Below, one piece after another: positions 68 to 54,950 of a stretch of DNA of 57,526 bases. The first letter of the stretch is position 1. Every line of letters starts with the position of its first letter. Location of the stretch: positions 1 to 57,526 of the forward strand of contig JBBTQQ010000002.1 of assembly GCA_038065615.1 (NCBI GenBank). Reading direction: 5' to 3'. Source of the DNA: Patescibacteria group bacterium (GTDB lineage: Bacteria; Patescibacteriota; Doudnabacteria; UBA920; VMFF01). The notes beneath the pieces are model-generated. The model searched no databases. It saw only the letters and a list, made by a program, of their open reading frames with translations, and was not told where the DNA came from. Position numbers and translations under genes: made by a program.

Positions 68-75
68 GTGTTGCT

Positions 76-111
76 CGGGCTCGCGTTGCTTAAAAAGCCA
101 ACGCGAGCCCG
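76..111. other. Strong GC hairpin 8 nt upstream of the tRNA-Thr(CGU) 5' end
   Basis: GGGCTCGCGTTG (77-88) pairs perfectly with CAACGCGAGCCC (99-110) around a 10-nt loop. There is no clear T-run on either side, so a terminator role is uncertain. Confidence 0.6.
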
Positions 112-116
112 TCTTG

Positions 117-410
117 CTACCACCCGAAGGAACTGAAACGCCTGGGCGAAGGATCAACTGGACGGAGCCGTCGCTGATACACCCTCTCAGCGCGAACATG
201 GTTCGCATCCAGACCTTTTGCCTCCTTCCCAGGCTTCGGCACATGGGCCGCGCATTTCACTCGCCACATGAAATCCGAGAAGAACAGAACTCCACCGACC
301 CAAACCATGCTCTCTCCAGGATGCATACGTTTCGCTCCCTTCAGGATCGACTTGCGACGCGCAATGTGTTTCTTGTCGATGTTCCGTTCGGGTTTCTTCG
401 TGTAATACAC
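117..410 (-). CDS. Candidate 97-aa basic protein inside GC-1 (speculative)
   Basis: GTG at 410 is preceded by AAGGGGGA with a 5-nt spacer. The ORF reads YYTKKPERNIDKKHIARRKSILKGAKRMHPGESMVWVGGVLFFSDFMW... and I recognise no family. The opposite strand is equally open, so this call is weak. Confidence 0.2.
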   Translation of the reverse strand: MYYTKKPERNIDKKHIARRKSILKGAKRMHPGESMVWVGGVLFFSDFMWRVKCAAHVPKPGKEAKGLDANHVRAERVYQRRLRPVDPSPRRFSSFGW

Positions 411-462
411 TGCTATCCCCCTTGTCCGTGTGGTCAACCTGAATCCTGCGATTGATGATGGT

Positions 463-491
463 ATGTTAAGGGGAAAATGAAATGAAGTCAA
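463..491 (-). promoter_or_regulatory. Candidate sigma70-like promoter reading into GC-1 and towards tRNA-Thr
   Basis: On the minus strand: TTGACT, 17 nt, TAACAT. Pattern match only. Confidence 0.25.
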
Positions 492-516
492 TAAAACCAC
501 TAGGGTTTGCTAGTGG
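491..516 (-). terminator. Rho-independent terminator of the LD-carboxypeptidase gene
   Basis: Hairpin CCACTAG-GGTTTG-CTAGTGG (497-516), followed on the minus strand by TTTTAT. Confidence 0.6.
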
Positions 517-546
517 CATATGTGCTAATATGTTCAACAATAAAAA

Positions 547-1533
547 CTAATGTTCAAGAATTGTCAGCTCTTTTTTTTCTTTGCTCACGTTCATGGAAAC
601 AATTCCACCAATAGGGAAAGTAATTATTGGACTAGTATGTCCAAAGTCTACATTTCCAACTATTGGAATATTTGCTAATTGTTTTTTTGACTTAATCATT
701 TGTCTGAATAGATCAAGGGTCATATGACTTTCTTTCTGAAATCTACCAATTACAATTCCTTTAACACCTGCAAAACCTGGTTGATGAATTAAAGATTGCA
801 GATCCCTGTCAAAATGATGAGGTTGAGATTCAGAGTCATCTTCAAGGAATAATATTGAATCCTTTAAGTCAGGCATATATTCTGTGCCTTGAAGTAAGTT
901 AAAGGTACAAAGATTAGCTCCTAACAAAACACCTTCAGCACTACCTTCGTTTAATATCCAGAAGCCTTCGTTTTTGAGCAGATTCCTTTCGTCTTGATTT
1001 TTGTACCATTCATCACCACTCCACTCCTTGCTTGGTGTTACTGAATACTTTTCAGAACTCATTAAACATTTCTTAAAAAAATCAAGAGTGTAATCAAAAT
1101 ATAATTTCTGTCCAAAAGTTGAATAATGGGGGCTGGAATATGTTACTAAGCCTGTTTTAGCAAAGATCGCGTTATTCAATGCTGTGATGTCAGAATATCC
1201 GCAAAAAACCTTAGGATTGTTTTTTATGATCTCCCAATCAATTGAGTCTAACAGTTGATTGCTATTAAAACCGCCAACTACTGATATGATGACTTTAACG
1301 TCTTTGTCTAAGAAAGCGCTATGTAAATCAGAAATTCTAGATGCTACAGAGGAAGAGTTGAAATCATTTTTTTCTTCTACGTGTTCCCCAAATGTTAAAG
1401 TCAACCCTATTTCTTCAAAATGGGACTTTGCAATATCTCTAACTTCCTGACTAATAAGCGCAAGCGAACGAGCTGGAGCAATAACTCTGACGATATCGCC
1501 TTTTTTTAATTTTGAAGGATATATCTTTTGCAT
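547..1533 (-). CDS. LD-carboxypeptidase (peptidase S66, LdcA/MccF-like)
   Basis: Family-typical segments GDIVRVIAPA, GGFNSNQLL, nucleophile context GYSDITAL, and C-terminal FGHTSP. ATG at 1533 (MQKIYPS...) is preferred over the track's GTG at 1551, which lies in the upstream hairpin. Confidence 0.8.
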   Translation of the reverse strand: MQKIYPSKLKKGDIVRVIAPARSLALISQEVRDIAKSHFEEIGLTLTFGEHVEEKNDFNSSSVASRISDLHSAFLDKDVKVIISVVGGFNSNQLLDSIDWEIIKNNPKVFCGYSDITALNNAIFAKTGLVTYSSPHYSTFGQKLYFDYTLDFFKKCLMSSEKYSVTPSKEWSGDEWYKNQDERNLLKNEGFWILNEGSAEGVLLGANLCTFNLLQGTEYMPDLKDSILFLEDDSESQPHHFDRDLQSLIHQPGFAGVKGIVIGRFQKESHMTLDLFRQMIKSKKQLANIPIVGNVDFGHTSPIITFPIGGIVSMNVSKEKKELTILEH

Positions 1534-1545
1534 TGTGTACAAACT

Positions 1546-1571
1546 AATCACCCGCTTTTAAAGCGGGTGAT
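1546..1571 (-). terminator. Hairpin terminator after the coiled-coil gene
   Basis: AATCACCCGC (1546-1555) pairs with GCGGGTGATT (1563-1572 region), immediately downstream of the stop at 1576. Confidence 0.5.
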
Positions 1572-1575
1572 TTAA

Positions 1576-2784
1576 TTATCTCTTTCGTTCTATACGTTCT
1601 AGCTCAGATAGAACTGCATGCTCCTTGTCGTGTAAACGATTCCACAAACTGTACATCGTTTTATTTTTTGGCTCTTGAAAAGCATCGTCCCAGCCTTTAT
1701 ATTTACCCACCATTCCTTTGGTCCCTTGTTCATACCTTTCTAAATTCGCAAACTGCTCTACTCGATCTCGGACCCTGGTGTTAATTCCACGCAAATTACC
1801 GATTATAACTGAACTTTCACGTGTTATAACCGCGTTTTCCTTCTCACCTCTTGCAACTTTGGTTACTAACTCTCCACGTGCATAAAATTCGTCAGCTATT
1901 AATACTCCATATTCTGCTTCTAAGGAATCCATTTCTTTTATTAAATCGTCCCTTTCTTTCCTGGCTTTCTCTAAATCAGCTAAAGCTACTTCATTTTGTA
2001 CGACTATTTCTCTGTTCTGAACTATTACATAGTCAATTGCAGCCTTATCTTTGCTAGCAAATAGTCCTAATTTTTTTCTTTTCTCGGCTAAACGTTCAAG
2101 AAACATTGGCTGATCAAACGATTCCAAAACTCTAGTCATATCCTCAACTGTTCTGAATGATCTGCGGGTTTGATCAATAACTTCGCGTAATCTCTCGCGG
2201 GCATGACTCGCCCTTTGCTCAGCTTCTGCTTGTTCTTCTCTTGCCTGCATAGACTTGGGCACAAGCGCTTCCATTCGTAAATAAATAGCGTCAGCCTTTT
2301 TTTCAAGTTCAACGTTTAACTGCTCAACTTCTTTTCTCAACCCTCTTTCTCCATGCTCGACATATGCATCTTTCAAAACTTCATCTTTAACTTCGGGAAT
2401 ACCCATAATTGCATCATATTTCTGTAATGACTCTTCTCTTTGTTGTTGCAAAGATATTATCAACTCTTTTAGCAACCTTAAATCTTCTTGATCTTTAGGG
2501 TCAGTTAGTAATCCGCCCTGTTCTTGGGCTTCAAAAAAAGTTAATGTTTTCTGAGCTTCTGCAAGCATAGAAACCAAACGCCTATCTTCAGCAACCATTG
2601 CTTCACGATCCCCTACCTGCTTTGTTACTTTTGCTGCTTTCTGAGCTTTAATTTCAGCAAAACGTGCTTCTAAATCAACCCTTTGCTGCTTTAAGTCTTC
2701 AACTGTTGGTGTCTCAGGTCTTTGCTCTTGTCCTTCTCCTACATCCTCTGGTCTTGGTCCTCCCTCACCTGGTGGTATAGTCAT
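1576..2784 (-). CDS. Hypothetical coiled-coil protein (402 aa)
   Basis: Long ORF, very E/K/R/Q/L-rich with a heptad-like character. No catalytic motif recognised. Confidence 0.6.
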   Translation of the reverse strand: MTIPPGEGGPRPEDVGEGQEQRPETPTVEDLKQQRVDLEARFAEIKAQKAAKVTKQVGDREAMVAEDRRLVSMLAEAQKTLTFFEAQEQGGLLTDPKDQEDLRLLKELIISLQQQREESLQKYDAIMGIPEVKDEVLKDAYVEHGERGLRKEVEQLNVELEKKADAIYLRMEALVPKSMQAREEQAEAEQRASHARERLREVIDQTRRSFRTVEDMTRVLESFDQPMFLERLAEKRKKLGLFASKDKAAIDYVIVQNREIVVQNEVALADLEKARKERDDLIKEMDSLEAEYGVLIADEFYARGELVTKVARGEKENAVITRESSVIIGNLRGINTRVRDRVEQFANLERYEQGTKGMVGKYKGWDDAFQEPKNKTMYSLWNRLHDKEHAVLSELERIERKR

Positions 2785-2859
2785 AAATGTAAAAATATTA
2801 ATGTTGCTAATCTATATAAATAATACTCTCAGGAACAACGTTATGCAATCTTTAAACTC

Positions 2860-2933
2860 TGGAGCGGGAAACGGGAATCGAACCCGTGTCTCAACCTTGG
2901 GAAGGTCGCGTTCTACCACTGAACCATACCCGC
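2860..2933 (-). tRNA. tRNA-Gly (anticodon CCC)
   Basis: Reverse complement GCGGGTATGGTTCAGTGGTAGAACGCGACCTTCCCAAGGTTGAGACACGGGTTCGATTCCCGTTTCCCGCTCCA. Anticodon stem CGACC/GGTTG with loop TT-CCC-AA, T arm ACGGG-TTCGATT-CCCGT, encoded CCA. There is one U-U mismatch in the acceptor stem. Confidence 0.9.
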
Positions 2934-2951
2934 AAGATTACAAGGTATATT

Positions 2952-3809
2952 TTACCTAACAAGCCTTAAAACAGTATAGCTTGGTTTTTGCGCTATTAGC
3001 CATTGCTCAAAATCAGCCGTCTTTATAAATATCTGCTGAACCTTGTAACGCTTTGAGTCTTTTGGTCCTTTTGAATCACTGGCAAGCACCTTGAATATAT
3101 GAATACCATATCTAGAATATGCGGTATGTACTTTTGTGTCTTTCGCTGATTCAACCTCACTGAAATATTCTGAAATTAAATCTTTGTAACTAACATATCC
3201 CAAATCTCCACCAAGCTGAGCGCTTAGAGCATCTTCACTATATGCTATTGCTACGTCATCTAACCCACTTCCTGAATCCAGCTTGGACATGATTAAGTCA
3301 TATTTTGAAAAAGCATCTTTGTTTAACTTTCTGTTTGAAGCAAGCCAAACAGCAAGCTTTGTTTTAACAACATCTGGATACACAAACCAATCCTTAAACT
3401 GACTTTCCGAGAGTTTGTATTCTTTTGCTAACTCTGATTTTTGTGTTGTCTCTTTAAGCAATGCGTATGCTGAATCTACCTCTTTGCTTGAAACTGTAAT
3501 TCCTTTAGCTGAAAGAAGACTATCTGCAATCTTGTTTAAGACAAGCTGATTTATGAGTAGCCCTTTCTGTTCTGTGCTTAGCTTTGTTTTCTTTACCTCT
3601 TCAGAAACATCAAAACGCGTGAAATATTCTCCAAGTGTTACCACTTTAGAGTTAACAAACATTGCTGGTAGTGGAATATATCTAAAAAGTTTTTTTCCCA
3701 AAACTGAAGAAACTGGCAAGATATATGCTTGTAATATGAAAAGAAGAATTAAACCTAAAATTAAAAACCAGATTCTTTTTTTTGTCTTTGCTTTTATTCT
3801 CTTAGACAT
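2952..3809 (-). CDS. Membrane-anchored peptidyl-prolyl isomerase (parvulin/PpiC type, SurA/PrsA-like)
   Basis: N-terminal TM segment (RIWFLILGLILLFILQAYIL) and a C-terminal parvulin-like stretch GGDLGYVSYKDL...YGIHIFKV. Confidence 0.65.
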   Translation of the reverse strand: MSKRIKAKTKKRIWFLILGLILLFILQAYILPVSSVLGKKLFRYIPLPAMFVNSKVVTLGEYFTRFDVSEEVKKTKLSTEQKGLLINQLVLNKIADSLLSAKGITVSSKEVDSAYALLKETTQKSELAKEYKLSESQFKDWFVYPDVVKTKLAVWLASNRKLNKDAFSKYDLIMSKLDSGSGLDDVAIAYSEDALSAQLGGDLGYVSYKDLISEYFSEVESAKDTKVHTAYSRYGIHIFKVLASDSKGPKDSKRYKVQQIFIKTADFEQWLIAQKPSYTVLRLVR

Positions 3810-3811
3810 GT

Positions 3812-4207
3812 TTAAGGATTACCCCCTCTTAGGAAATATGTCACCCATTTATTAAAATTAGATTGATTTGCATTTTCTTGTTTTGTTGCTTCTTCTTGAT
3901 TAACAATTTCTGTTTGTGGACTTAGGGCTGAGAAAGAATACACAACTTCACCTTCTTTTTTAAGGTTTAACTGTTGTCTTGCTGCTTGTTCTTTGTAACT
4001 ATCTGTTTTCAAATATGCAATGAAGTTCTTAACCTCTTCGTTATTCTTTTGAATCTGGTCTGCTTGTTTAGTTAAAGCATCAATTTCTTTTTGAATGCTA
4101 TGTCTGTTTCTAAACTGACCAAAGCTTACAACTAAAAGAAAAAGCAGGAATATTGATCCGCCTATTACAAACGCCCTGCTCTGGATTATATCTTTAAACT
4201 TAGACAT
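3812..4207 (-). CDS. Septum formation initiator-like protein (FtsB/DivIC family)
   Basis: 131 aa with a single N-terminal TM followed by a coiled coil (IQKEIDALTKQADQIQKNNEEVKNFIAYLK). Typical architecture and cell-division context. Confidence 0.5.
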   Translation of the reverse strand: MSKFKDIIQSRAFVIGGSIFLLFLLVVSFGQFRNRHSIQKEIDALTKQADQIQKNNEEVKNFIAYLKTDSYKEQAARQQLNLKKEGEVVYSFSALSPQTEIVNQEEATKQENANQSNFNKWVTYFLRGGNP

Positions 4208-4210
4208 AGC

Positions 4211-4774
4211 TTAAATACTTCTTTTAGGCTTTATGAAAACCTTAGCAAACTCAGGTTGAGTGTATGCAGTCTTAGTGCTTGAATTTGCACCATACTCTAA
4301 ATGAACTTTCCAGATATAGTCTTTAACCTTTGAAGGATTAGGAATTGCTCTTAAAATTAAAGAATGATCTAACCCAACCACTTCTACTAAAACATCACCA
4401 TAATGAAAGAGGGTTGAGGAAACTCCTGTGGTTCTAAAACTAACATTTAAAATACGATCAAGGGGTGTTTCAATAACTGTTTTTTTAAACAACCCAGTAT
4501 GAACAATGTGTAAAAGTCTTTTTGAAGTAACTATATATACATTAACTGACCAAATGATAAAAGCATGCAACGCAAACATTGCAACAAGAACTGTCCATCC
4601 AATGAAAATCTGAGCGTGGGTGGTTGTTGAAAATATGAAGTCGTACTTTAAACCAAGGAACCAAGGAATGAAAATAAAAAGAAAAATCTGGAAAACTTTA
4701 GGCACAAGTGTAATCTCGTGCTTTCTGTAAACCGCTAAAAGTTGTTCATCACTATGAAGTTGGTGTGAAAACAT
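4211..4774 (-). CDS. Membrane protein with bacterial PH (YdbT-like, bPH_2) domain
   Basis: Two TM helices followed by KRLLHIVHTGLFKKTVIETPLDRILNVSF...GDVLVEVVG, which resembles the membrane-flanked PH fold family. Confidence 0.5.
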   Translation of the reverse strand: MFSHQLHSDEQLLAVYRKHEITLVPKVFQIFLFIFIPWFLGLKYDFIFSTTTHAQIFIGWTVLVAMFALHAFIIWSVNVYIVTSKRLLHIVHTGLFKKTVIETPLDRILNVSFRTTGVSSTLFHYGDVLVEVVGLDHSLILRAIPNPSKVKDYIWKVHLEYGANSSTKTAYTQPEFAKVFIKPKRSI

Positions 4775-4781
4775 TTTTGTT

Positions 4782-4886
4782 TCAATATACTGATGATTGA
4801 GAGAAAAGCATTAAAATCATGGACAAAACAACAAGGAATATGACTATGTTAACTACTATCTGAGCTTTTTTTCTGTTCCTAAACAT
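4782..4886 (-). CDS. Possible 34-aa single-TM micro-protein (below ORF-track cutoff)
   Basis: Hand translation gives MFRNRKKAQIVVNIVIFLVVLSMILMLFSQSSVY. It fills the gap between two genes, but I see no clear SD. Confidence 0.2.
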   Translation of the reverse strand: MFRNRKKAQIVVNIVIFLVVLSMILMLFSQSSVY

Positions 4887-4899
4887 ATATTTAAGTATA

Positions 4900-5460: not shown

Positions 5461-5462
5461 AG

Positions 5463-7247: not shown

Positions 7248-7256
7248 CCCTGAATT

Positions 7257-16201: not shown

Positions 16202-16230
16202 TTGCTGATAAAATGTGTTTTCTGTAGAAT
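16202..16230 (+). promoter_or_regulatory. Candidate sigma70-like promoter of the GC-2 cassette
   Basis: TTGCTG (16202-16207), 17-nt spacer, TAGAAT (16225-16230), 26 nt before the ATG at 16257. Confidence 0.4.
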
Positions 16231-16256
16231 ACGAGCACACCTGAATCGGAGGAACC

Positions 16257-16511
16257 ATGGCTGGAGGAAGCATGTCTGTGGAAACGGTGGAAACGAAGCC
16301 AGCGCACATCGAGACTGTGATCGGCGTGGTCGCACTCGTGATTGCAGCGCTCGTTGCAGCTTCGATCCTCGCGATCAACATCAACGCTCATGACGCAATC
16401 AAGGAGGTCGGCTTCTGGACCGGGATGGCCTATCGGGTCATTACCTTCACGTCGTGGCTTCTGGCTGCGGCACTCGCCGGGATCGGCTCACAGCTCGTTC
16501 GTGACGCCTGA
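16257..16511 (+). CDS. 84-aa two-TM small membrane protein, compositionally foreign (GC-2)
   Basis: GGAGG (16248-16252) lies 4 nt before the ATG. Two hydrophobic spans: IETVIGVVALVIAALVAASILAINI and VITFTSWLLAAALAGIGSQLV. Lines 16261-16440 count 55/60/58% G+C. It is the only plus-strand gene in the 547-17616 minus-strand run. No family recognised. Confidence 0.55.
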   Translation: MAGGSMSVETVETKPAHIETVIGVVALVIAALVAASILAININAHDAIKEVGFWTGMAYRVITFTSWLLAAALAGIGSQLVRDA

Positions 16512-16543
16512 GATCAGCAACAGCCCTCCGCAAGAAAGCAAAA

Positions 16544-16604
16544 CCCCGATGACAAAGATGATCATCGGGGTAAGCGTCAATCAAAGCAGTTGCTGCTTTT
16601 TTTT
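16544..16604 (+). terminator. Two hairpins after the GC-2 ORF; the second has a T-run
   Basis: CCCCGATGA/TCATCGGGG (16544-16570), then AGCAG-TTG-CTGCT followed by seven T (16585-16604). The second hairpin abuts the convergent dac gene stop. Confidence 0.55.
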
Positions 16605-38401: not shown

Positions 38402-38430
38402 ATAGTAAACGAACGTTCACCTAGTGTCAA
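38402..38430 (-). promoter_or_regulatory. lexA promoter with embedded LexA-box-like dyad
   Basis: Minus strand: TTGACA (38425-38430), 17 nt, TACTAT (38402-38407). The spacer contains GAACGTTCGTTT (38407-38418), which matches GAAC-N4-GTTT against the Gram-positive Cheo-box core GAAC-N4-GTTC. Confidence 0.5.
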
Positions 38431-38483: not shown

Positions 38484-38515
38484 CCACAAAAAGACACTGC
38501 CTAAGCAGTATCTTT
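38484..38515 (-). terminator. Terminator after the zinc-ribbon micro-gene
   Basis: Minus strand AAAGATACTGC-TTAG-GCAGTGTCTTT (one mismatch), followed by TTTTTG. Confidence 0.6.
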
Positions 38516-38522
38516 ACAATAT

Positions 38523-38657
38523 TTAATCAGCCCCTTCGGCTTCCCCAGCGCATTCCTTGCACAATTCCTGCTGGGTTGTCGAACGGTTAGTTGGATTCAG
38601 ATGCCTGCCACATACAGCGCAGGTATCTTCTAAGTCCTCATCTTCGTAATCAACCAT
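38523..38657 (-). CDS. 44-aa zinc-ribbon-like micro-protein in GC-richer patch GC-3 (below ORF-track cutoff)
   Basis: Hand translation gives MVDYEDEDLEDTCAVCGRHLNPTNRSTTQQELCKECAGEAEGAD, with two CxxC pairs. SD AAGGGGG lies 5 nt before the ATG. Lines 38521-38640 count 53% and 48% G+C. Confidence 0.5.
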   Translation of the reverse strand: MVDYEDEDLEDTCAVCGRHLNPTNRSTTQQELCKECAGEAEGAD

Positions 38658-38687
38658 ACTTACCCCCTTGCCCCTCCCGGGTCTTAG

Positions 38688-38930
38688 TTATTTTTTAGAT
38701 AAGAGGAAGTTAATAATGTTAACCACAGACTCCCAGATATTCTTCAAAATCGGTAACGAAGCTGGCAGTAAAACCACCAAAACTATGATATAAACAAACT
38801 CTTTTTGAATTACCTTAATTATTCCGTAAACCAACAGAATAGCCAGTAAAAACGAAACTATTGGATGTAGGCTTGTTGGAAAATAATTAAGAAACTGTGT
38901 GTATATCTTAAATATGCTATCCATACCCAA
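38688..38930 (-). CDS. Hypothetical small membrane protein (80 aa, 2 TM)
   Basis: ORF with two hydrophobic spans. The zinc-ribbon ORF follows 30 nt downstream. Confidence 0.5.
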   Translation of the reverse strand: MGMDSIFKIYTQFLNYFPTSLHPIVSFLLAILLVYGIIKVIQKEFVYIIVLVVLLPASLPILKNIWESVVNIINFLLSKK

Positions 38931-43014: not shown

Positions 43015-43200
43015 GAGGTTTTTCCTTTATGACTTATATCTGAATAGACCGACCGGTATTCCTGTTAAAAAATAAATCTCGGTTATTAACCGAGTGAAAT
43101 TAGCACTTAAGATGATCTTGAAATGCTTTTCCTCGGTAGGCTTACTGCTCTCACAGATTATGCCCTAAAAGGGCGCCGACTTTCTTTGGAATATTCTATT
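43015..43200 (-). promoter_or_regulatory. Structured rplJ 5' leader with attenuator-like hairpin (possible L10 leader)
   Basis: About 190-nt untranslated leader. On the minus strand it ends in CTCGGTTAATAACCGAG followed by ATTTATTTTTT (plus 43066-43094), about 50 nt before the rplJ ATG. Assignment to the L10 leader class is by position and analogy only. Confidence 0.4.
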
Positions 43201-43207
43201 CACCAAC

Positions 43208-46378: not shown

Positions 46379-46443
46379 GAATCAATTATTATTTCTGTGT
46401 AATTAGTTATACACATCTTAAACCTATTATATCAAATCCCCTC

Positions 46444-46797
46444 CTAAACCGCAAAGAATAACGCAATAGCAGCCAAACCAAGCCCAATATCCCTGAAAGT
46501 TATATCCAACACCCCTAAACCAGGAGCCAAAGCAATGACAAACAACAAAACAGCGGCTACCAGAGAAAAGAACTTAACCTTAACATTACCTAAAAATAAA
46601 AGACCAAGAGCAATATCAAGCAAAGCATGGGCAAAGAGCGCGTTCTCCCTTGTAAAACCAAAATTAGAAACCCACATAGGAACAAAACCAACCCAATCAT
46701 TTGGATTAATCAAAGACCTAACCCCAGCATAGATAAAGACAAAGGCTAGAGATATTCTTAACAACAAGACGGTTTTTTGAACCTGTTCTGCTCTCAT
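46444..46797 (-). CDS. Small DoxX-like membrane protein
   Basis: 117 aa, 4 hydrophobic spans. The N-terminal LLLRISLAFVFIYAGVRSL resembles the DoxX family. Confidence 0.45.
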   Translation of the reverse strand: MRAEQVQKTVLLLRISLAFVFIYAGVRSLINPNDWVGFVPMWVSNFGFTRENALFAHALLDIALGLLFLGNVKVKFFSLVAAVLLFVIALAPGLGVLDITFRDIGLGLAAIALFFAV

Positions 46798-46815
46798 CCC
46801 CTAAATTATACACCA

Positions 46816-46844
46816 TTGCAGACTCATTTTCGCAGTGCTACGAT
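46816..46844 (+). promoter_or_regulatory. Candidate promoter of the GC-4 cassette
   Basis: TTGCAG (46816-46821), 17 nt, TACGAT (46839-46844). The roughly 75-nt leader that follows contains the small hairpins CCTGG-AAAGC-CCAGG and CCACC-CAGGC-GGTGG. Confidence 0.3.
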
Positions 46845-46918
46845 GAACTTACCTGGAAAGCCCAGGAGACTTCCACCCAGGCGGTGGGGCAACATCCTTT
46901 TGAAAGGGAGAGTCTACT

Positions 46919-47281
46919 ATGGGGCCGAAGATCGTCGCACGCCAGTATGTCTGCATTAGAGCAATCGAAGCGCTGCTCCTGCAGATCACTCAGAGGTTCA
47001 CTCCCGGGGTAGCTTACAGGGTCTCGTCTATGGACATTCCCAGCTCAGCTAGCTCAACAGCGGAAAGGATCAAAGGAAAGGTCCTGAAGTTCTCCACTGT
47101 GAAGGACACTAACGGGAAGTTTGAGGTAAGCTTCTCCTGCACACTGCAGCTGTACAGGATACTGGGACTCTGGAACCCAGCGTCCTTCAAGCTTTCCCTG
47201 AATGGCGAGGACTATGAAGGGAGTTTTGGTGCTTCAAGCACCTACAACATCCTGGTCCAGGACGTGATCAAGAAGAGCTAG
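46919..47281 (+). CDS. 120-aa protein of unknown function, compositionally foreign (GC-4)
   Basis: It is the only 60-aa-or-longer ORF the track lists over the body of this patch (just a short upstream ORF, 46777-46959, clips its 5' end). GGGAGAG lies 7 nt before the ATG. Line 46921-46980 counts 58% G+C. Codon usage differs from the host: Lys 8 AAG to 1 AAA; Arg 4 AGG, 1 AGA, 1 CGC. It is plus-strand inside the 41539-47772 minus-strand run. Confidence 0.55.
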   Translation: MGPKIVARQYVCIRAIEALLLQITQRFTPGVAYRVSSMDIPSSASSTAERIKGKVLKFSTVKDTNGKFEVSFSCTLQLYRILGLWNPASFKLSLNGEDYEGSFGASSTYNILVQDVIKKS

Positions 47282-47311
47282 CACCAAGGAGGCACAACTG
47301 AAAAAAAGCAA

Positions 47312-47341
47312 AAGCCAATGGCAAAGCTTGACCATTGGCTT
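47312..47341. other. Hairpin 1 of a triple-hairpin cluster
   Basis: AAGCCAATGG / CCATTGGCTT, 10-bp stem, 10-nt loop. The T-run is on the minus-strand side only. Confidence 0.6.
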
Positions 47342-47343
47342 GA

Positions 47344-47376
47344 GACGTCAACAGAAATGTTGATGTCTTTTGATTT
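47344..47376 (+). terminator. Likely terminator of the GC-4 ORF
   Basis: GACGTCAACA-GAAA-TGTTGATGTC (one G-U pair), followed by TTTTGATTT. Confidence 0.6.
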
Positions 47377-47391
47377 CTGAGGGATATATAA

Positions 47392-47415
47392 AACCTCCTG
47401 GCATATCAGGAGGTT
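47392..47415 (-). terminator. Likely terminator of hup
   Basis: AACCTCCTG-GCATAT-CAGGAGGTT, followed on the minus strand by TTATATAT. It is the first hairpin downstream of the hup stop. Confidence 0.55.
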
Positions 47416-47487
47416 GTATATATTTCTTTAAACACAGAAAACAGTTTGCACCCGTTTGCTATGTTCTTTTGTTTCGCTAGAAGCTAG

Positions 47488-47772: not shown

Positions 47773-47987
47773 AAGTATTTGTTAATTATCTTTCTTGAGA
47801 TAGTATAGCACAGGGATTAAAAAAAGCTAGTAAAATCAAGGGTTTTGTCAATGGTCTAAGATACAGGGGCAAAAAAGGCTTAAACTACACCCTAATATAT
47901 CTGTTAAAAAATCAATACTTTTTAATCATTGCTCCCCTTGTTTTCCAAGAGTATACTTCAATATGGTGTGCAATTAAACGCAAAAAT

Positions 47988-50171: not shown

Positions 50172-50213
50172 AGCAACCCCATCCTACCAAGGAGGGCTAC
50201 CTCAATTTAACAA

Positions 50214-51446
50214 CTATTCTTCAATATATTCCGGAGAAGTTTTGTTCCTAATTGATTTACTAACATAAAAGAAACAAATCCCTGCTAAAAAAACAAAAAT
50301 TGTTACAAACTCCAAACCATGACGAAGTCCTCCGTCCCCACCAAACCTTGATTGACTTAAATCAGAAATTCTTCCTACAACTGCCGGAGCAGCTGTGTCT
50401 CCAAACAAATGGATTATTAATACATAAAAAGCAAAAGCAGTAGCGCGCATATGCTTAGGAACAACATCATGAATAACGGCGGTGGCAGGAGAGTGATATG
50501 CGCTTAAAAACATTGAACCCAAAAAAAACAACAAAAGAAAATACTTTCCATGTGCTTGTAAGCCCAAAAACATCAAAGGCGCGGCAATCAACAAAGACCA
50601 TGCGATTGTATCACTTCTACCCCAAGCAAACTTTTTATGCAATCTATCAGCAACATAACCCCCGATGAAAACACCTAACACACCAGCAATCATCATAGTA
50701 AGCCCAAGGATTATTGAAGCTTCCTGAATATTATACCCCTTGTACCTTCTAACAAACTCAACACCCCAGGCAATATATCCCCCACCTGCAAAAGCAGTTA
50801 AAGTTCCACCAACAATTGCCCATAGCAAGGCCGGATTCTTAAGAAGTTGTTTGAAAGGAATTTTAGGATGAACGCTCTTCTCTGTTTTGTCATACAAACG
50901 ACTACTTAAAAAAGCCAACAAAAATCCTGGAGCAGAAACAAAAAAGAAAGCATAACGCCAATTAAAATGATAAGCAATAATACCGCCTAAAGCAGCACCA
51001 AGCGTTCCACCTATAAACATACCAGCATTAAAATACCCCTGAGCCATGGCTCTTTCTTCTTGCGGAAAATTATCTGAAATCATGGCCGTTGCAGCAGGAG
51101 CATAACTTGCCTCCCCTATACCAACCAAAGATCTAATTCCAAGCAAAGCTTTAAAGCTTGTAGCCATTCCTGAAAAGAAAGAAGCAAAACTCCAAAACGT
51201 AACCCCCGCAGTTATCAAGAGCTTTCTTGAATACTTGTCAGCAAGCATTCCCAAAGGAACGCTGGCTAAAGAATGAACCAACATAAAAACACTGCCTAAC
51301 AACCCAAGCTGCGTATCTGACACGCCAAACTCTGCTTGAATGTTATGAAACAGCGGGAAAATTACTTGTCTATCTACGTAATTAAAAAAATTAATCAAGG
51401 CCAGAACCCAAACGATTTGTGTCTGTTCTCTAGTAAACTTATGCAT
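50214..51446 (-). CDS. MFS transporter
   Basis: 410 aa, about 12 TM. The MFS loop motif GMLADKYSRK lies between TM2 and TM3. Confidence 0.75.
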   Translation of the reverse strand: MHKFTREQTQIVWVLALINFFNYVDRQVIFPLFHNIQAEFGVSDTQLGLLGSVFMLVHSLASVPLGMLADKYSRKLLITAGVTFWSFASFFSGMATSFKALLGIRSLVGIGEASYAPAATAMISDNFPQEERAMAQGYFNAGMFIGGTLGAALGGIIAYHFNWRYAFFFVSAPGFLLAFLSSRLYDKTEKSVHPKIPFKQLLKNPALLWAIVGGTLTAFAGGGYIAWGVEFVRRYKGYNIQEASIILGLTMMIAGVLGVFIGGYVADRLHKKFAWGRSDTIAWSLLIAAPLMFLGLQAHGKYFLLLFFLGSMFLSAYHSPATAVIHDVVPKHMRATAFAFYVLIIHLFGDTAAPAVVGRISDLSQSRFGGDGGLRHGLEFVTIFVFLAGICFFYVSKSIRNKTSPEYIEE

Positions 51447-51838
51447 TATTCTACCAAACCTCCCTGGATACCTTTAATCGCTTCAACAATTTCACTCCTA
51501 ACGCGTTCCTCGATCATACCTACTCCATTAGAAGATTCTTCGCCGTCTCTAATTAGCTGTTCTAAATGCTCAAGCGTTTCCTTAGAAGCAATGCCTGGGT
51601 CTGAAGCATGAGCGCTCCAGATCATCTTTAAAACATGCATTGCATAATATATCCATTCTCTATCAGACATACCTAAGGACTCATCCAATCCATTTTGATG
51701 CGATAAAAAATCAATATAATCAAGTAATGACCTTGAAAGATTCGCTCTTAACTCTGGGTTTGGAAGAATTTCAACCTGTTCTTGCTTCCAAGCATCAGGA
51801 TCTTGTGACTCCCAAGGATTTGTTTCAGAATCAGTCAT
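51446..51838 (-). CDS. Hypothetical acidic protein (130 aa)
   Basis: Clean ORF whose stop shares position 51446 with the downstream MFS start. Confidence 0.5.
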   Translation of the reverse strand: MTDSETNPWESQDPDAWKQEQVEILPNPELRANLSRSLLDYIDFLSHQNGLDESLGMSDREWIYYAMHVLKMIWSAHASDPGIASKETLEHLEQLIRDGEESSNGVGMIEERVRSEIVEAIKGIQGGLVE

Positions 51839-51859
51839 AGATATATGATATCACACTGT

Positions 51860-53119
51860 TTAAATATGCCTATGCATTTTTTTGTGCAAGACATCTGTTG
51901 CAACAACTTTACTAAAATCAAACTTTGATTTTAACGTGTACGCTATTCCAACCAAAATAATCATCAGGACTGACATAACAACATACGCAAACTTAATTCC
52001 TTGTGAGTCTATAATCACACCAACAATCAAAGGACCAACCAAGGCTCCAATATCATAGATAAGGGACATCATACTGCCTACCCTGCCAAAGTGTTCAGGC
52101 TGTGCGCATACTGTAATAAGCTCGTTATTTCCAACAGAAATTAACTCTAAAACAAGCCCAACACAGAAAGCAACAAGAGCCTGCCACCAGAAGGACCCAA
52201 TGAAGACTAAAGAAATAACCAATAATGCCATTGCAACAAGCCCATACGCGAAAGTCTTCAATCCCTGGTTATCAAACCACTTTCCAAGCCACCAACCAAA
52301 AATATATGGCAGAGCAAACATCACACCAATCAAAATTGCTTTACTTAAACCAGCGCCTTCTGTATATGCTTGAATTGGAAGAAAAAACGCCAACACTGAA
52401 CTAACCAAAGCAATGAAAAAATTAAACATTGCGACAGCTTTTAACTTCCAATCCCAACGGATGAGATCCCTAAAAGCTAAACCATAGACCTGATTAAAAT
52501 TCTCAGGTTCTCCACTTTGTTTAAATACCTCTGGAGTCTTCTGAAAATACCAGATGATGAAAAACGCAATCAAAGATGTTGGTGTAATAAGGAACAGGAG
52601 TTGATGGATAGAAAAATATTGAATAAGCCACATACCAGACAAAGCAGCAACAACCCACCAGAAATTAGCAATCGTATCAAAATACCCAAAAATCGTTGCC
52701 AGCTTACCATCAGAAGCATTTCTTCTGAAATATGTTCCCCTACCAACAGAATCCATTGCAAAAGTAATACCATTTAAGAAACGCCCCAACACAACAAACA
52801 CAACCATTCCTGTAACTCCAGCAAGAAAATATGATGCCCCAATAAAGGTGTACAACAAAAGCCCAACCAGAATTATACTGGTTGCTTTAAAACGATCAGC
52901 AGCCATCCCTATTATAGGGAGCGCAAGAATGAAAGAAACATCATAAGCAGCACGGATTAAACCAGCTTCAGCATAGTTTCTGGAAAAAGAAAAGATAAAC
53001 ACGGGGAGCAAAGATTCAGCAAATCCCCAACCAGCCCAACGAACAGCAGTTGCAAACGTAACAATTCTAATCCCTAATGGAGCTGAAAACTCAGAGAAAC
53101 CAAAAAGCCTTTTAATCAT
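51860..53119 (-). CDS. MFS transporter
   Basis: 419 aa, about 12 TM, with MFS-like GMAADRFK after TM2. Confidence 0.7.
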   Translation of the reverse strand: MIKRLFGFSEFSAPLGIRIVTFATAVRWAGWGFAESLLPVFIFSFSRNYAEAGLIRAAYDVSFILALPIIGMAADRFKATSIILVGLLLYTFIGASYFLAGVTGMVVFVVLGRFLNGITFAMDSVGRGTYFRRNASDGKLATIFGYFDTIANFWWVVAALSGMWLIQYFSIHQLLFLITPTSLIAFFIIWYFQKTPEVFKQSGEPENFNQVYGLAFRDLIRWDWKLKAVAMFNFFIALVSSVLAFFLPIQAYTEGAGLSKAILIGVMFALPYIFGWWLGKWFDNQGLKTFAYGLVAMALLVISLVFIGSFWWQALVAFCVGLVLELISVGNNELITVCAQPEHFGRVGSMMSLIYDIGALVGPLIVGVIIDSQGIKFAYVVMSVLMIILVGIAYTLKSKFDFSKVVATDVLHKKMHRHI

Positions 53120-53134
53120 ATTTTAGCAAAAAAA

Positions 53135-54100
53135 TTATTTCAAAACTCTAATTTTTTCAAAATTCTTACCGGTTAACCCTTTAATAGAAACGTTTACCCA
53201 TTCGTATTCTGAATTTGCTAACTGAGACGGTGAGAGTACATATTCTACGTATCCATCTTCCTTTTGTTTTAAAGCCCCTACCCCAACCCAAAATTTAGCC
53301 ACAGAAGTCTTTGTGGTTCCCACTGGAATACAGTTTCCTATCTGTGTGCTAAATACCAAAACCTTATCCCTATCTCTAGTGTATGGTCTTCTACGGCTCA
53401 CAGTATAGTAAGCTTGATGCATTAATTCTGTTTTTTCACGCCACAAAGGATCGCTATCTTGACCTGGTTTTAATCGGACATTCATCTCAACCATCCTTTT
53501 GCGTCTTTCATCTAAAGTTGGCAAACCACCCAACTGTTTTTCCATTAAACTAATTTTGTCTTTCAAATCTTCATCAAATTCTTCGGGTGTATAATGCGAA
53601 CCAACTGGGGTCAATGTAAACTTCATGTTTCCTGGCAAATAGCCACTAAGGGAACCAAGAAGTTCTCTAAAACCATTAGTATAACTTTCAGTCTCCGCCT
53701 TAGAAATATTATTCATTCTTTCAACGATTACATCATCAGAGCTAAAATCAAAAACCAACCCCGACTTATACACCTCCGCAATTGGCTTTAACCATTTTGC
53801 ATAGTACATCAGTGTAAATAGCTCTGCCCAGTCAACATCTGGAGATTCATCTAAACGCCATAACTTGTAACCACCAAAAACAAAAACGAATTGGATAGGT
53901 TCATTTTTACTAACGCTCCTATCTATCGCCTCTCTTACTTGTTTTTGGTACTCATCTGAAACACTAAACTTTCTGAACTTTTTAGACATGATTGTCTTAA
54001 AAATAAACTCAGAAAGCTGATCTTGTGATGAAAAACTCATTTCTAATTTTTCAGGTTTCAGCTGTTGTAATCTTTTCTCAATAAATTCTTGTGGTGTCAT
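53135..54100 (-). CDS. Hypothetical protein (321 aa); weak resemblance to Dit1/PvcA-type enzymes
   Basis: Clean ORF. The segment PIQFVFVFGGYKLWRLDESPDVDWAELFTLMYY...VYKSGLVFDFSSDD loosely recalls the Dit1/PvcA core pattern (from memory, unverified). Confidence 0.5.
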   Translation of the reverse strand: MTPQEFIEKRLQQLKPEKLEMSFSSQDQLSEFIFKTIMSKKFRKFSVSDEYQKQVREAIDRSVSKNEPIQFVFVFGGYKLWRLDESPDVDWAELFTLMYYAKWLKPIAEVYKSGLVFDFSSDDVIVERMNNISKAETESYTNGFRELLGSLSGYLPGNMKFTLTPVGSHYTPEEFDEDLKDKISLMEKQLGGLPTLDERRKRMVEMNVRLKPGQDSDPLWREKTELMHQAYYTVSRRRPYTRDRDKVLVFSTQIGNCIPVGTTKTSVAKFWVGVGALKQKEDGYVEYVLSPSQLANSEYEWVNVSIKGLTGKNFEKIRVLK

Positions 54101-54105
54101 GATTT

Positions 54106-54179
54106 TGGAGATGTGGGCAGGATTTAAACCTACCTATTCCACCTTGCGGGTAGACGCCTAGACACTCGGCCACCACATC
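54106..54179 (-). tRNA. tRNA-Cys (anticodon GCA), non-canonical loops
   Basis: Reverse complement GATGTGGTGGCCGAGTGTCTAGGCGTCTACCCGCAAGGTGGAATAGGTAGGTTTAAATCCTGCCCACATCTCCA. Anticodon stem TCTAC/GTGGA with loop CC-GCA-AG, discriminator U73 as expected for tRNA-Cys, and encoded CCA. Oddities: C at position 33, no GG in the D loop, and T loop TTTAAAT. Confidence 0.7.
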
Positions 54180-54224
54180 AGAATAAGCATAACAAAAAAC
54201 ACTAGCTATCGCTAATGTTCTTTG

Positions 54225-54298
54225 TGGCAGGGGTGCTAGGAGTTGGACCCAGTCTAAATCTTTTGGAGAGATTTGTGCGACCGTTACACTACACCCCC
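54225..54298 (-). tRNA. tRNA-Trp (anticodon CCA)
   Basis: Reverse complement GGGGGTGTAGTGTAACGGTCGCACAAATCTCTCCAAAAGATTTAGACTGGGTCCAACTCCTAGCACCCCTGCCA. Anticodon stem AATCT/AGATT with loop CT-CCA-AA and encoded CCA. The T loop reads TCCAACT, which is unusual at position 55. Confidence 0.8.
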
Positions 54299-54299
54299 A

Positions 54300-54338
54300 A
54301 GAAAAACAGCTCATAAGCCCAAGGCTTACAAGCTGTTT
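54300..54338 (-). terminator. Terminator after rpmG
   Basis: Long hairpin AAACAGCT..TAAGCC-CAA-GGCTTA..AGCTGTTT, followed on the minus strand by TTTTTC. Confidence 0.65.
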
Positions 54339-54341
54339 GAA

Positions 54342-54497
54342 CTACTTGGTTTCCTTGTGCATTGTCATCTTCTTGCAATGCTTACAAAACTTCTTAAGTT
54401 CCAAGCGCTTCGGTGTTAACTTCTTGTTTTTTCTGGAATGATAGTTTAAGTTCTTGCACTCTGTGCATTCCAGTTTAATCAAATTATCTTGAGACAT
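54342..54497 (-). CDS. rpmG: 50S ribosomal protein L33 (below ORF-track cutoff)
   Basis: Hand translation gives [51 protein letters not shown], a CxxC...CxxC zinc-ribbon L33 signature. It lies within a tRNA cluster, as in many bacteria. Confidence 0.9.
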
Positions 54498-54520
54498 TGA
54501 TATTATCCTTTATGCGATTA

Positions 54521-54596
54521 TGGAGCCGGCTGTCGGACTCGAACCGACCACCTACGGTTTACAAAACCGTTGCTCTACCGGATGAGCTAAGCCGGC
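54521..54596 (-). tRNA. tRNA-Thr (anticodon UGU)
   Basis: Reverse complement GCCGGCTTAGCTCATCCGGTAGAGCAACGGTTTTGTAAACCGTAGGTGGTCGGTTCGAGTCCGACAGCCGGCTCCA. Anticodon stem ACGGT/ACCGT with loop TT-TGT-AA, T arm GTCGG-TTCGAGT-CCGAC, encoded CCA. Confidence 0.92.
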
Positions 54597-54664
54597 AAGA
54601 GATAAAATTAACTATTAAAATTTAACATAAAGACCGTAAAAAGTAAAGGGCCTTGGGTTGCTAG

Positions 54665-54950
54665 ATATGAATCCAGCGCGCCAAGGCACCTTTGCTTGTA
54701 TGGTTCTTGCGTTTCTTCATCAATGTTCTGATGGTATACGCAAAACCAGATATCTTTCCTCCTGTTTTAACTACCGTTGAAACTGTGCGAATCGAGCGCC
54801 CTGCGACGCACAACCACACGGGTGCGCTCGTGCATGATCAGTGTACGCTCGTTGTACCCCTGGATATCGTGTACAGCGCTGTACTCGAACCCAGGGTGCT
54901 GCAGGAGCGACGAATCAGGCTCGACGCGGTAATGACTGACCGGCTAACCC
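54665..54950. other. GC-rich patch GC-5 (gene-fragment-like, no complete ORF)
   Basis: Line 54781-54840 counts 62% G+C. The minus strand has a 58-codon stop-free frame (54767-54943) with no start codon, ending ...HERTRVVVRRRALDSHSFNGS*. An orphan AGGAGG (54758-54763) follows that stop. There is a perfect 14-bp palindrome GTACAGCGCTGTAC (54871-54884) and a 7-bp stem CGAGCGC/GCGCTCG (54792-54830). Confidence 0.6.

Follow-up and report, generated by a model that had tools for sequence, protein, structure and literature searches.

The window, by which we mean the whole 57,526-nt stretch of DNA analysed here, has a mean GC of 37.1% and contains five short GC-rich patches, delimited by a 100-bp GC of at least 50%: GC1 (1–457, 55.8% GC), GC2 (16211–16600, 54.9%), GC3 (38512–38689, 49.4%), GC4 (46785–47304, 51.5%) and GC5 (54725–54990, 51.1%). 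All ten 60-base GC values quoted in a preliminary description of this DNA were reproduced exactly. Of the five compositional outliers it listed, GC1, GC2, GC4 and GC5 stand out most strongly, lying 4.3–6.1 standard deviations above the window mean in 300-bp windows and taking the top ranks by tetranucleotide distance within the window, whereas patch GC3 is marginal (2.1 standard deviations). The GC excess of these four lies mainly in third codon positions and represents a foreign-type codon style. Third-position GC is 0.62 in GC1, 0.69 in GC2, 0.70 in GC4 and 0.71 in the GC5 remnant, as compared with 0.24–0.30 in ordinary neighbouring genes, 0.38 in the HU gene and ~0.27 in the genome. Comparison of all five patches with one another gave no similarity in DNA or protein, as had been stated before. 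L-numbers in what follows label comparison sequences from relatives or other assemblies.

The window start cuts a tRNA-Thr(CGU) gene (1..67, minus strand; Rfam tRNA, 47 bits, and ARAGORN on L014); the complete gene is L014:2834–2909 and positions 1–67 are identical to L014. A perfect 13-bp hairpin (76..111, minus strand; arms 76–88 and 99–111, 100% complementary in a repeat search) sits between this tRNA gene and the GC1 stop codon; L018 and L021 both retain it, with changes that compensate. The GC1 gene (117..410, minus strand; 55% GC) encodes 97 amino acids from a GTG start preceded by AAGGGGGA. Its ORF is kept in L018 and L021, with amino acid identities of 92% and 52%, respectively, and with indels that are all multiples of three. 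The protein has a basic N-terminus followed by a short hydrophobic stretch, and no match to it was found in Pfam, NCBIfam, PHROG or PADLOC. The motif TTGACT-17-TAACAT upstream of the gene (463..491, minus strand), read from the sequence and seen in alignment to be kept in L018 and L021, may act as its promoter. GC1 forms one end of a GC-rich block of 1.07 kb (ORF, tRNA and a candidate RNA of ~520 nt) that extends past the window start. This candidate new structured RNA lies just outside the window and adjoins GC1.

The GC2 gene (16257..16511, plus strand; 84 amino acids, 59% GC) has a GGAGG Shine–Dalgarno sequence, and the exact protein is called on three independent contigs. Its product, with a hydropathy maximum of 2.94, is predicted to be a two-helix membrane protein and is 90% identical in L018. 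A weak promoter-like element, TTGCTG-17-TAGAAT (16202..16230, plus strand), was read from the sequence upstream and falls below threshold in the consensus promoter scan. Two terminator-like hairpins found by the promoter/terminator scan (16543..16599; 16543–16571 and 16583–16599) close both GC2 and the S11 peptidase gene that converges on it.

Patch GC3 holds a conserved zinc-ribbon gene of ordinary kind, and its composition is not foreign. The gene (38523..38657, minus strand) lies upstream of lexA, has its own hairpin and T-run (~38484–38509) and encodes a 44-residue CxxC...CxxC protein with weak zinc-ribbon Pfam matches. It is conserved in relatives (84–98% amino acid identity in L038, L040 and L041) and is called as a 44-residue gene in L041; in the annotation of the window's own contig, both it and GC2 are uncalled. 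Its GC of 50% reflects amino acid content, third-position GC being 0.36–0.48 (0.47 in the window), so the foreign origin envisaged earlier is not supported for this patch.

The GC4 gene (46919..47281, plus strand; 120 amino acids) has a syntenic homologue, flanked by HU and DoxX, in every one of 10 lineages and, as noted previously, is like GC2 the sole plus-strand gene within a minus-strand run. Upstream lies a promoter-like element, TTGCAG, 17 nt, TG-n-TACGAT (46816..46844, plus strand), kept in ten lineages with a −10 that varies only as TAnnAT. The promoter matches reported before for GC2 and GC4 are weak and none was returned by the plus-strand consensus scan, a strict scan that missed the GC4 element, but this element with its extended −10 TG is conserved. 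The 5′ leader (46851..46918, plus strand; defined from alignments) contains hairpins at 46852–46866 and 46873–46887 and a GGGAG Shine–Dalgarno sequence, has no Rfam match and is nearly invariant across lineages, while protein identity of the ORF is 45–58%. Three hairpins identified by terminator scan and repeat search (47312..47415; 47312–47341, 47342–47369 with a T-run and 47392–47415, bidirectional) follow the gene and are shared with the convergent HU gene; the first shows compensatory changes in L011 and L013. The strong hairpins described earlier are borne out as terminator-like at GC1, GC2 and GC4.

With leader and terminators conserved, divergence at GC4 is limited to the ORF. Between the window and L042, flanking DNA is 91–99% identical and the ORF 65–73%; identical amino acids use different codons in 51% of cases (4–21% in flanking genes) and dS is 1.9, as against 0.06–0.38 in flanking genes. 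Alleles fall into at least five types that share 58% protein identity or less, and the allele tree roughly follows the flank tree at its deepest split. Judged from these alignments, the coding sequence behaves as an exchangeable allele that would have been replaced, or have diverged far beyond its flanks. The gene at 51446–51838 is also hypervariable, yet has ordinary GC. The AlphaFold model of the GC4 protein, of moderate confidence (pLDDT 72.7), predicts a compact fold with a conserved core, in which a long N-terminal helix packs on a six-stranded antiparallel sheet. Its top Foldseek matches (VirB8, NTF2, CaMKII hub and cystatin-like; E 0.05–0.25, TM 0.35–0.47) weakly suggest an NTF2-like fold.

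GC5 is a start-less 3′ remnant of 58 codons plus stop (54767..54943, minus strand; by frame translation). A hairpin, GCCTTGG...CCAAGGC (54650..54687, minus strand; from sequence reading and the fold of 54640–54925), separates it from tRNA-Thr(UGU) (54521..54596, minus strand; ARAGORN and Rfam). As first described, GC1 and GC5 both flank a tRNA-Thr gene at its 5′ side; the two tRNA genes, then thought near-identical, are different isoacceptors, CGU and UGU, matching at 70/76 positions. The full GC5 gene, of 88–90 amino acids, is intact in L042 (L042:2553–2825), L044 and L038 (L038:1403–1669), as part of a GC-rich island of 0.7–1.0 kb with 2–3 small genes upstream of tRNA-Thr(UGU); by lineage the island holds 3, 2 or 0.6 genes. 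The remnant has a dN/dS of 0.75 against L042, whose DNA homology (97%) ends at a breakpoint at ~54930. Beyond it the gene for an 856-residue beta-helix/Ig-like surface protein (54915..57485, minus strand; Pfam Beta_helix and Bact_surface_Ig-like) has its last codons and stop (54915) inside the remnant, in another frame, in GC-rich sequence homologous to another gene. The preliminary description, which had GC5 supplying the end of the neighbouring ORF at a junction, was right in substance: a gene has been truncated and its neighbour runs into it.

This junction, seen in no other assembly and 2.6 kb from the contig end, is the one place that suits the proposal that reads from high-GC organisms were joined into a CPR contig. 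L042, L044 and L038 bear out the GC5 sequence on its tRNA side. Elsewhere full patches, boundaries included, recur base for base in independent assemblies from other samples and assemblers (GC1 in two, GC2 in four, patch GC3 in one and GC4 in four), and diverged copies occupy the same loci in other lineages. This recurrence rules out GC1–GC4 as chimeras, and we regard a chimeric origin of the patches as scarcely credible.

Although the patches had been described as intergenic, every one of them is a small protein gene or gene remnant, and neither an RNA gene nor a repeat. Values of dN/dS are 0.15–0.20 for GC1, 0.17 for GC2 (against L018), 0.01–0.17 for patch GC3, 0.08–0.33 for GC4 and 0.16–0.18 for the GC5-island genes, a range (0.01–0.33) that places all intact patch genes under purifying selection. 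Since GC spikes in AT-rich genomes are usually RNA genes, we considered whether the patches could be structured non-coding RNA genes or cis-regulatory RNAs with incidental ORFs. The RNA candidate in the block beside GC1, the conserved two-hairpin leader of GC4 and the GC5 region, whose predicted folds are far more stable than those of shuffled sequence (z = −5.4 and −5.8 for the two strands), would all be in keeping with this. However, no patch matches Rfam at its gathering threshold or at relaxed ones; the reading frames persist, with in-frame indels and dN/dS far under 1; and at GC4 it is the untranslated parts alone that are conserved, the ORF varying freely. The RNA elements suggested before are therefore very improbable.

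The patch genes are confined to one narrow, roughly genus-level clade and their proteins evolve faster than those of their neighbours, with dN 5–10 times higher. Searches of Pfam, NCBIfam, PHROGs and PADLOC, and tblastn against phages and plasmids, gave no donor or outside homologue for any patch gene in the window. For GC4 there was none among 5.8 billion clustered proteins, and an HMM search recovered only two other clusters of its family among 1.84 billion representative proteins; the host-DNA source envisaged earlier is not supported. The spacing of the tRNA-Gly(CCC) and tRNA-Thr(CGU) genes is 2.8 kb in the window and 870 bp with GC1 in L021, and in the more distant relatives L026 and L027 the empty GC1 site is just 40 bp between the two tRNA genes. 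Likewise, between the S11 peptidase gene and mraY the window has a ~460-bp spacer that holds GC2, whereas L053 and L055 have 31–49 bp; beyond the GC2 site, the promoter and start of mraY are conserved. Empty sites were obtained for GC1 and GC2 only, both in fairly distant relatives (65–72% DNA identity for GC2), and because these orthologous sites are empty we take GC1 and GC2 to be insertions.

Of the readings weighed, the best is that GC1, GC2, GC4 and the GC5 island are probably foreign-DNA islets from GC-richer sources. The third positions, the empty sites and the net GC-to-AT decay of GC4 all favour the higher-GC origin first proposed, and the unrelated patches fit several separate acquisitions rather than one repeat family: they are independent single-gene islets that do not form one system. 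A further islet, of 84 amino acids, is present in L040, L041 and L009 and absent from the window. The earlier word 'recent' does not fit, since patch GC3, GC4 and the GC5 island occur in all sampled clade lineages and GC1 is shared with a relative that has only 81% DNA identity in the adjacent genes.

Composition also bears on a rather unlikely alternative, that these are native small genes whose third-position GC is kept up by GC-biased gene conversion where recombination is frequent, or by selection on the structure or stability of their mRNA. Outgroup-polarised third-position changes in GC4 number 23 GC-to-AT and 4 AT-to-GC, against 19 and 35 in DoxX, IMPDH and HU controls (Fisher p = 2e-5); a first parsimony count was biased, IMPDH giving a mirror-image result. 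This net loss of GC runs against active maintenance and would be consistent with an old foreign origin, though the count is not proof of decay, because in most bacteria recent changes are biased from GC to AT even at equilibrium. Conversely, third-position GC in GC4 is 0.61–0.75 in all ten lineages despite synonymous sites near saturation between the deepest pairs, which could mean active upkeep. The strong constraint on the GC-rich GC4 leader and terminator hairpins, the apparent replacement of GC4 alleles by recombination, the GC5 fold scores and the lack of a donor for any patch lean the same way. Against this, GC1 and GC2 are missing where more distant relatives have the orthologous spacer; recombination cannot explain the GC of GC1, GC2 and the GC5 region, because none of them is hypervariable, and the hypervariable gene noted above has ordinary GC.

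It is improbable that the ORFs were born de novo, on inserted or structural DNA that was rich in GC, and that their proteins are young orphans rather than products of transferred genes. In GC-rich DNA stop codons are few, and long ORFs therefore turn up by chance, as they do on both strands of GC1 and of GC5; strict clade restriction, the lack of homologues anywhere searched and the GC-rich non-coding RNA candidate beside GC1 are also as expected. However, all intact genes are under purifying selection, each has a proper Shine–Dalgarno sequence and terminator, and GC4 has a predicted compact fold with a conserved core. As the GC-rich DNA would still need a source, de novo birth supplements foreign insertion and does not replace it.

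For foreign insertion we envisage that GC-richer DNA entered short spacers, some separating housekeeping genes and others tRNA genes, in the ancestry of this clade of groundwater CPR bacteria, perhaps by recombination after DNA uptake, tRNA-adjacent spacers being tolerated. Each unit has, or once had, a promoter-like element, a Shine–Dalgarno sequence, one ORF of 44–120 amino acids and at least one terminator hairpin. Purifying selection would then have kept the genes as small accessory proteins, their GC slowly worn down by AT-biased mutation. Some islets would later have been lost or truncated, as at GC5, where the last 58 codons persist and the surface-protein ORF runs in; at GC4 the coding part would have been exchanged, or have diverged, between a constant structured leader and constant terminators.

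Among known systems, the patches most resemble ameliorating, compositionally atypical genes acquired horizontally, 'genomic islets' in the sense of Lawrence and Ochman. They share with these a base and codon composition that departs sharply from that of the genome, clade restriction, empty orthologous sites, tRNA-gene neighbours, presence that varies among close lineages and a substitution flux towards host composition. They differ in being tiny (a single small gene, 0.3–0.5 kb), in having no known donor or outside homologue and in being GC-rich DNA within an AT-rich genome, acquired DNA in bacteria being more often AT-rich. No integrase, att-like repeat, target duplication, terminal inverted repeat or other mobility gene was found at any patch, and GC1 and GC5 lie 5′ of the adjacent tRNA gene, the 3′ end being the usual place for integrase-mediated elements. 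Like ORFans, the taxonomically restricted orphan genes for small proteins, the patch genes are short, family-less, clade-restricted, fast-evolving and often missed by gene callers; unlike them they are strongly GC-richer at silent sites, ORFans usually being AT-richer than, or similar to, their own genome. NTF2-like and cystatin-like alpha+beta cone proteins, which include VirB8 domains and some immunity proteins, share the predicted helix-on-sheet arrangement of GC4, but the structural matches are weak, model confidence is moderate and there is no sequence-family match. Allelic-cassette loci (competence pherotype, immunity or specificity genes) have conserved flanks around deeply divergent coding alleles. 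GC4 bears a resemblance to these in that its coding part alone is replaced or divergent (dS 1.9 as against ~0.2 in the flanks) between a nearly invariant leader and terminators; it differs in having no toxin, receptor or kinase gene next to it as a partner and in that its allele tree still roughly tracks the flanks at the deepest split. The patches are thus a familiar kind of foreign-DNA islet, of which one member, GC4, is unusually variable.

The sequence derives from a Hainich groundwater sample (well H41) and represents, in reversed orientation, the first 57.5 kb of a 325-kb contig; its close relatives go under the names Candidatus Saccharibacteria or Patescibacteria. Its overall GC content is 37.1%. 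When the extent of each GC-rich patch is set by 100-bp GC reaching 50%, GC1 covers positions 1–457 (55.8% GC), GC2 16211–16600 (54.9%), patch GC3 38512–38689 (49.4%), GC4 46785–47304 (51.5%) and GC5 54725–54990 (51.1%), and all the GC values quoted in the preliminary description were reproduced exactly. Of the five supposed compositional outliers, four proved to be so: GC1, GC2, GC4 and GC5 lie 4.3–6.1 standard deviations over the mean in 300-bp windows and also head the ranking by tetranucleotide distance, and patch GC3, at 2.1 standard deviations, is marginal. Third-position GC is 0.62 in GC1, 0.69 in GC2 and 0.70 in GC4, the four outliers together spanning 0.62–0.71, compared with 0.24–0.30 in ordinary genes and 0.38 in the gene for HU. 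The excess in GC1, GC2 and GC4 is thus one of codon style rather than an amino-acid effect. The gene in patch GC3 has a third-position GC of 0.36–0.48 (0.47 in the window) and a first-position GC of 0.60, so that its modest GC content comes from an acidic, Gly/Ala/Cys-rich peptide. Base and codon composition unlike that of the host is therefore found in GC1, GC2, GC4 and GC5 but not in patch GC3.

The patches had been described as intergenic, with RNA elements as one possible explanation. Each in fact carries a small gene or gene remnant, and no patch has an Rfam match at the gathering score, GC1 and GC4 having none at E values up to 10 either. The GC1 ORF, of 97 aa, runs on the minus strand (117–410). 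The strand was settled by comparison with two related contigs, L018 and L021, where start and stop are kept and every indel leaves the frame intact; the protein is 92% and 52% identical, respectively, and dN/dS is 0.15–0.20. A 113-aa ORF on the plus strand of GC1 was rejected because the indels keep the minus-strand frame. The GC2 gene (16257–16511, plus strand) encodes 84 residues with two predicted hydrophobic helices, and has a GGAGG Shine–Dalgarno sequence and two terminator hairpins. Patch GC3 holds a 44-aa ORF of the CxxC...CxxC zinc-ribbon type (38523–38657, minus strand) directly upstream of lexA, and GC4 a 120-aa ORF (46919–47281, plus strand). Such small GC-rich genes are inconsistently annotated: the stored gene calls of the window's own contig miss GC2 and patch GC3, both of which are called in other assemblies, and those of a contig from the same strain (L014) miss GC1. 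The sequence GTGAACGTTCGTTTAC (38405–38420, minus strand) is similar to the LexA box of Gram-positive type (GAAC-N4-GTTC); it follows the patch GC3 gene and its terminator and immediately precedes the likely lexA start. Upstream of rplJ–rplL, at 43062–43207 on the minus strand, there is a ribosomal protein L10 leader of the usual kind (Rfam RF00557, 50 bits).

GC5 is a remnant. In related contigs, a GC-rich island lies upstream of tRNA-Thr(UGU), measuring 1.04 kb with three small genes (95, 98 and 90 aa) in L042 and L044, and 0.72 kb with two genes in L038. What is left in the window (54767–54943, minus strand) comprises the last 58 codons and stop of the third island gene, without a start codon, and the DNA homology to L042 (97%) stops at 54930. 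An ORF of 856 aa for a beta-helix surface protein (recorded as an 869-aa call in the protein collection) ends at 54915, inside the remnant and in a different frame, and the earlier view of GC5 as a junction that supplies the end of the neighbouring ORF was therefore right in substance. Two other ORFs in GC5, one of 92 aa on the plus strand (54692–54970) and one of 52 aa on the minus strand, were discarded because in the relatives genes are called on the opposite strand or in another frame, and the protein likeness reflects DNA conservation only.

Assembly chimeras had been offered as one source of the patches. Whole patches together with their boundaries recur identically in contigs from other samples and assemblers, twice for GC1, four times for GC2, once for patch GC3 and four times for GC4, which disposes of this explanation for these four; the junction of GC5 with the 856-aa gene, 2.6 kb from the contig end, was seen in one assembly and not found in a second. 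Nor are the patches recent. Eight further lineages were gathered by exact match to the invariant HU protein (an exact look-up of the thioredoxin protein returned the same strain only), and in all eight a GC4 homologue, 45–58% identical to the window protein, lies between HU and DoxX and is always GC-rich, with a third-position GC of 0.61–0.75. Patch GC3 is present, at 84–98% identity, in all three of these lineages that extend to the lexA region, and the GC5 island in all three that extend to tRNA-Thr(UGU). GC1, its tRNA and the RNA beyond are shared with L021, in which the neighbouring genes are 81% identical to the window at the DNA level.

For GC1 and GC2, orthologous sites that are empty can be identified. 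The S11-peptidase and mraY genes are separated in the window by ~460 bp, which hold GC2, and beyond GC2 the promoter and start codon of mraY are conserved. Among three more distant relatives, with MraY proteins 77–82% identical, the spacing is 31 and 49 bp in two (L053 and L055), and in the third a different gene occupies the position. Similarly, the distance between tRNA-Gly(CCC) and tRNA-Thr(CGU) is 40 bp in L026 and L027, 870 bp in L021, where GC1 lies between them, and 2.8 kb in the window, where GC1 is accompanied by two further genes. These two, an S66 peptidase and a 402-aa gene (547–2784, between GC1 and tRNA-Gly(CCC)), have exchanged places in L018, where they are 79% and 71% DNA-identical to the window against 93.5% elsewhere, and both are absent from L021; the swapped order and the absence mark a variable segment adjoining GC1. 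A further small gene, encoding a membrane protein of 84–86 aa (47–49% GC), sits between an MFS transporter and a 214-aa gene in three related contigs (L040:4830–5084, L041:3376–3630 and L009:3898–4158), is truncated in L038 and is represented by a 42-bp spacer (50172–50213) in the window. Islets are thus gained and lost between lineages. They are not confined to the clade of the window when they adjoin a tRNA gene, as shown by a more distant genome of 36% GC in which tRNA-Glu(CUC) is directly followed by a patch of 57% GC that contains a 124-aa ORF (L025:2252–2787). The more distant relatives from JGI metagenomes (L022–L037) had only the tRNA-Cys and 321-aa gene pair in common with the window and none of its patches.

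Signs of mobility were sought in two ways. A repeat search gave only short, chance-level repeats, with no att-like or direct repeat, terminal inverted repeat or target duplication, and the ORFs scanned included no integrase or other member of a mobility-related family. A dispersed family of repeats or cassettes (MITEs or integron cassettes) was rejected: the patches show no similarity to one another or to the rest of the window, as had been noted at the outset, no second copy occurs in the window, and shared end motifs (attC or terminal inverted repeats) are lacking. That the patches are unrelated fits the earlier suggestion of several donors and points to several separate sources. The donors themselves did not emerge from database searches. 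GC4 has no outside homologue among 5.8 billion clustered proteins, where it is limited to four cluster representatives including itself, and a profile search of 1.84 billion representatives gave two clusters besides its own. Neither Pfam, NCBIfam, PHROGs nor PADLOC yielded a match for GC1, GC2, GC4 or the island genes; with GC1–GC4 and the island genes as queries, tblastn found nothing among phage and plasmid records. Homologues in a donor lineage were not found in these searches. The sole gene with actinobacterial-looking best matches belongs to a relative: in L043 (2581–3078), a 165-aa RNHCP-domain protein (52% GC), with best plasmid-record matches in Nonomuraea and Streptomyces (44–47% identity), stands in the position of the tRNA cluster upstream of the homologue of the 321-aa gene. 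An AlphaFold model of GC4 (pLDDT 72.7, pTM 0.67) predicts an N-terminal helix on a six-stranded sheet, for which Foldseek returned weak similarities to NTF2, VirB8 and cystatin-like proteins (best E ~0.05, TM 0.35–0.47), with no Pfam match.

From the composition, we infer a GC-rich foreign source for this DNA. An alternative is that the GC content of GC4 could be actively maintained, as its third-position GC is still 0.61–0.75 even though synonymous divergence is near saturation between the deepest GC4 lineages. The direction of recent substitutions speaks to the contrary. Counting GC-to-AT and AT-to-GC changes by Fitch parsimony over the whole tree was of no use, since the method leans toward the majority base, as the mirror-image result for IMPDH showed; it was replaced by a count of outgroup-polarised changes on four terminal branches only. 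At third positions of GC4 this gives 23 GC-to-AT and 4 AT-to-GC changes, against 19 and 35 for the controls DoxX, IMPDH and HU together (p = 2 × 10⁻⁵), and GC4 is therefore losing GC. The loss fits amelioration of foreign DNA but falls short of proof, since recent changes are AT-biased in most bacteria.

GC4 is also hypervariable. Between the window and L042, the flanking DNA is 91–99% identical and the GC4 ORF 65–73%; dS is 1.9 for GC4 and 0.06–0.38 in eight of nine neighbouring genes, and codons for identical amino acids differ in 51% of cases in GC4 compared with 4–21% in flanking genes. The ninth neighbour, a 130-aa gene of ordinary GC (51446–51838, minus strand), is likewise hypervariable (protein 67% identical, dS 1.0, against ~0.2 for the genes around it). 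The drop in identity coincides with the GC4 reading frame, from start codon to stop codon; on either side of it, the 68-nt leader, which forms two hairpins, and the three hairpins downstream hardly vary in any lineage. In the other subclade (L009, L011 and L041), the divergence of GC4 keeps pace with that of its flanks. The simplest reading of these alignments is an exchange of the coding sequence for divergent alleles, which would have come about by recombination within the conserved flanks. A target of a diversity-generating retroelement was rejected; the variation covers the whole ORF and not one C-terminal block, and the window contains no template repeat or second GC4 copy and no reverse transcriptase, as judged by the lack of a large YxDD-containing ORF.

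A second element deserving attention adjoins GC1. About 60 nt past window position 1, on the window minus strand and downstream of tRNA-Thr(CGU), lies a GC-rich unit of ~520 nt (L014:2966–3492). A TGnTAnnAT promoter-like element and a terminator belong to the unit itself; no ORF in it is conserved, and Rfam gave no match at E values up to 10. In three sequences, compensatory changes occur in 36 of 143 predicted base pairs, against 13.7 ± 2.8 in shuffles and 2–6 in shifted-partner controls, and we consider the unit a candidate for a new, unclassified structured RNA. Elsewhere, tRNA-Leu(UAA) in L042 (1437–1725) is apparently split in the anticodon loop by a group I intron (RF00028, 54.5 bits, E = 4.6 × 10⁻¹¹), on which the gene caller had placed a 58-aa ORF.

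Of the foreign-DNA interpretation in the preliminary description, the GC-rich foreign origin is probably right, and the recent, intergenic, RNA and chimeric parts are not. In a genome of this kind, most sharp GC spikes turn out to be small protein genes that gene callers overlook; they would be single-gene insertions beside tRNA or housekeeping genes, long-lived and slowly decaying in composition, and provide a compositional handle for spotting accessory small proteins in AT-rich reduced genomes. Saccharibacteria and other CPR bacteria have tiny genomes and depend on host cells, so that any gene gained and kept may hint at what such a way of life requires. Apart from this, GC4, a variable ORF in an invariant frame of leader and terminator, and the structured RNA candidate are worth attention alone. 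It is conceivable, though we think it improbable as a whole, that GC4 would determine specificity in an epibiotic CPR cell through hypervariable, swapped alleles, its product having an NTF2-like fold and serving, for instance, in an immunity-like role or in interaction with the host, that its invariant structured leader would control translation, that its codon style would be the trace of acquisition from the GC-rich host or its mobile elements, that the block at the window start would add an undescribed structured RNA, and that tRNA-adjacent GC-rich islets of one gene would be a recurrent route by which reduced genomes gain small proteins.

The hydrophobic product of GC2 may recall the toxins of type I toxin–antitoxin systems, for which 84 aa would be long. 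More generally, atypical composition is a well-known mark of acquired DNA, and as separate single-gene islets the patches belong to a familiar class. Our literature search turned up no earlier account of GC-rich islets in Saccharibacteria. Within the class, the patches are unusual for how small they are, for being orphans, for bringing GC-rich DNA into an AT-rich genome and for how the GC4 alleles behave.
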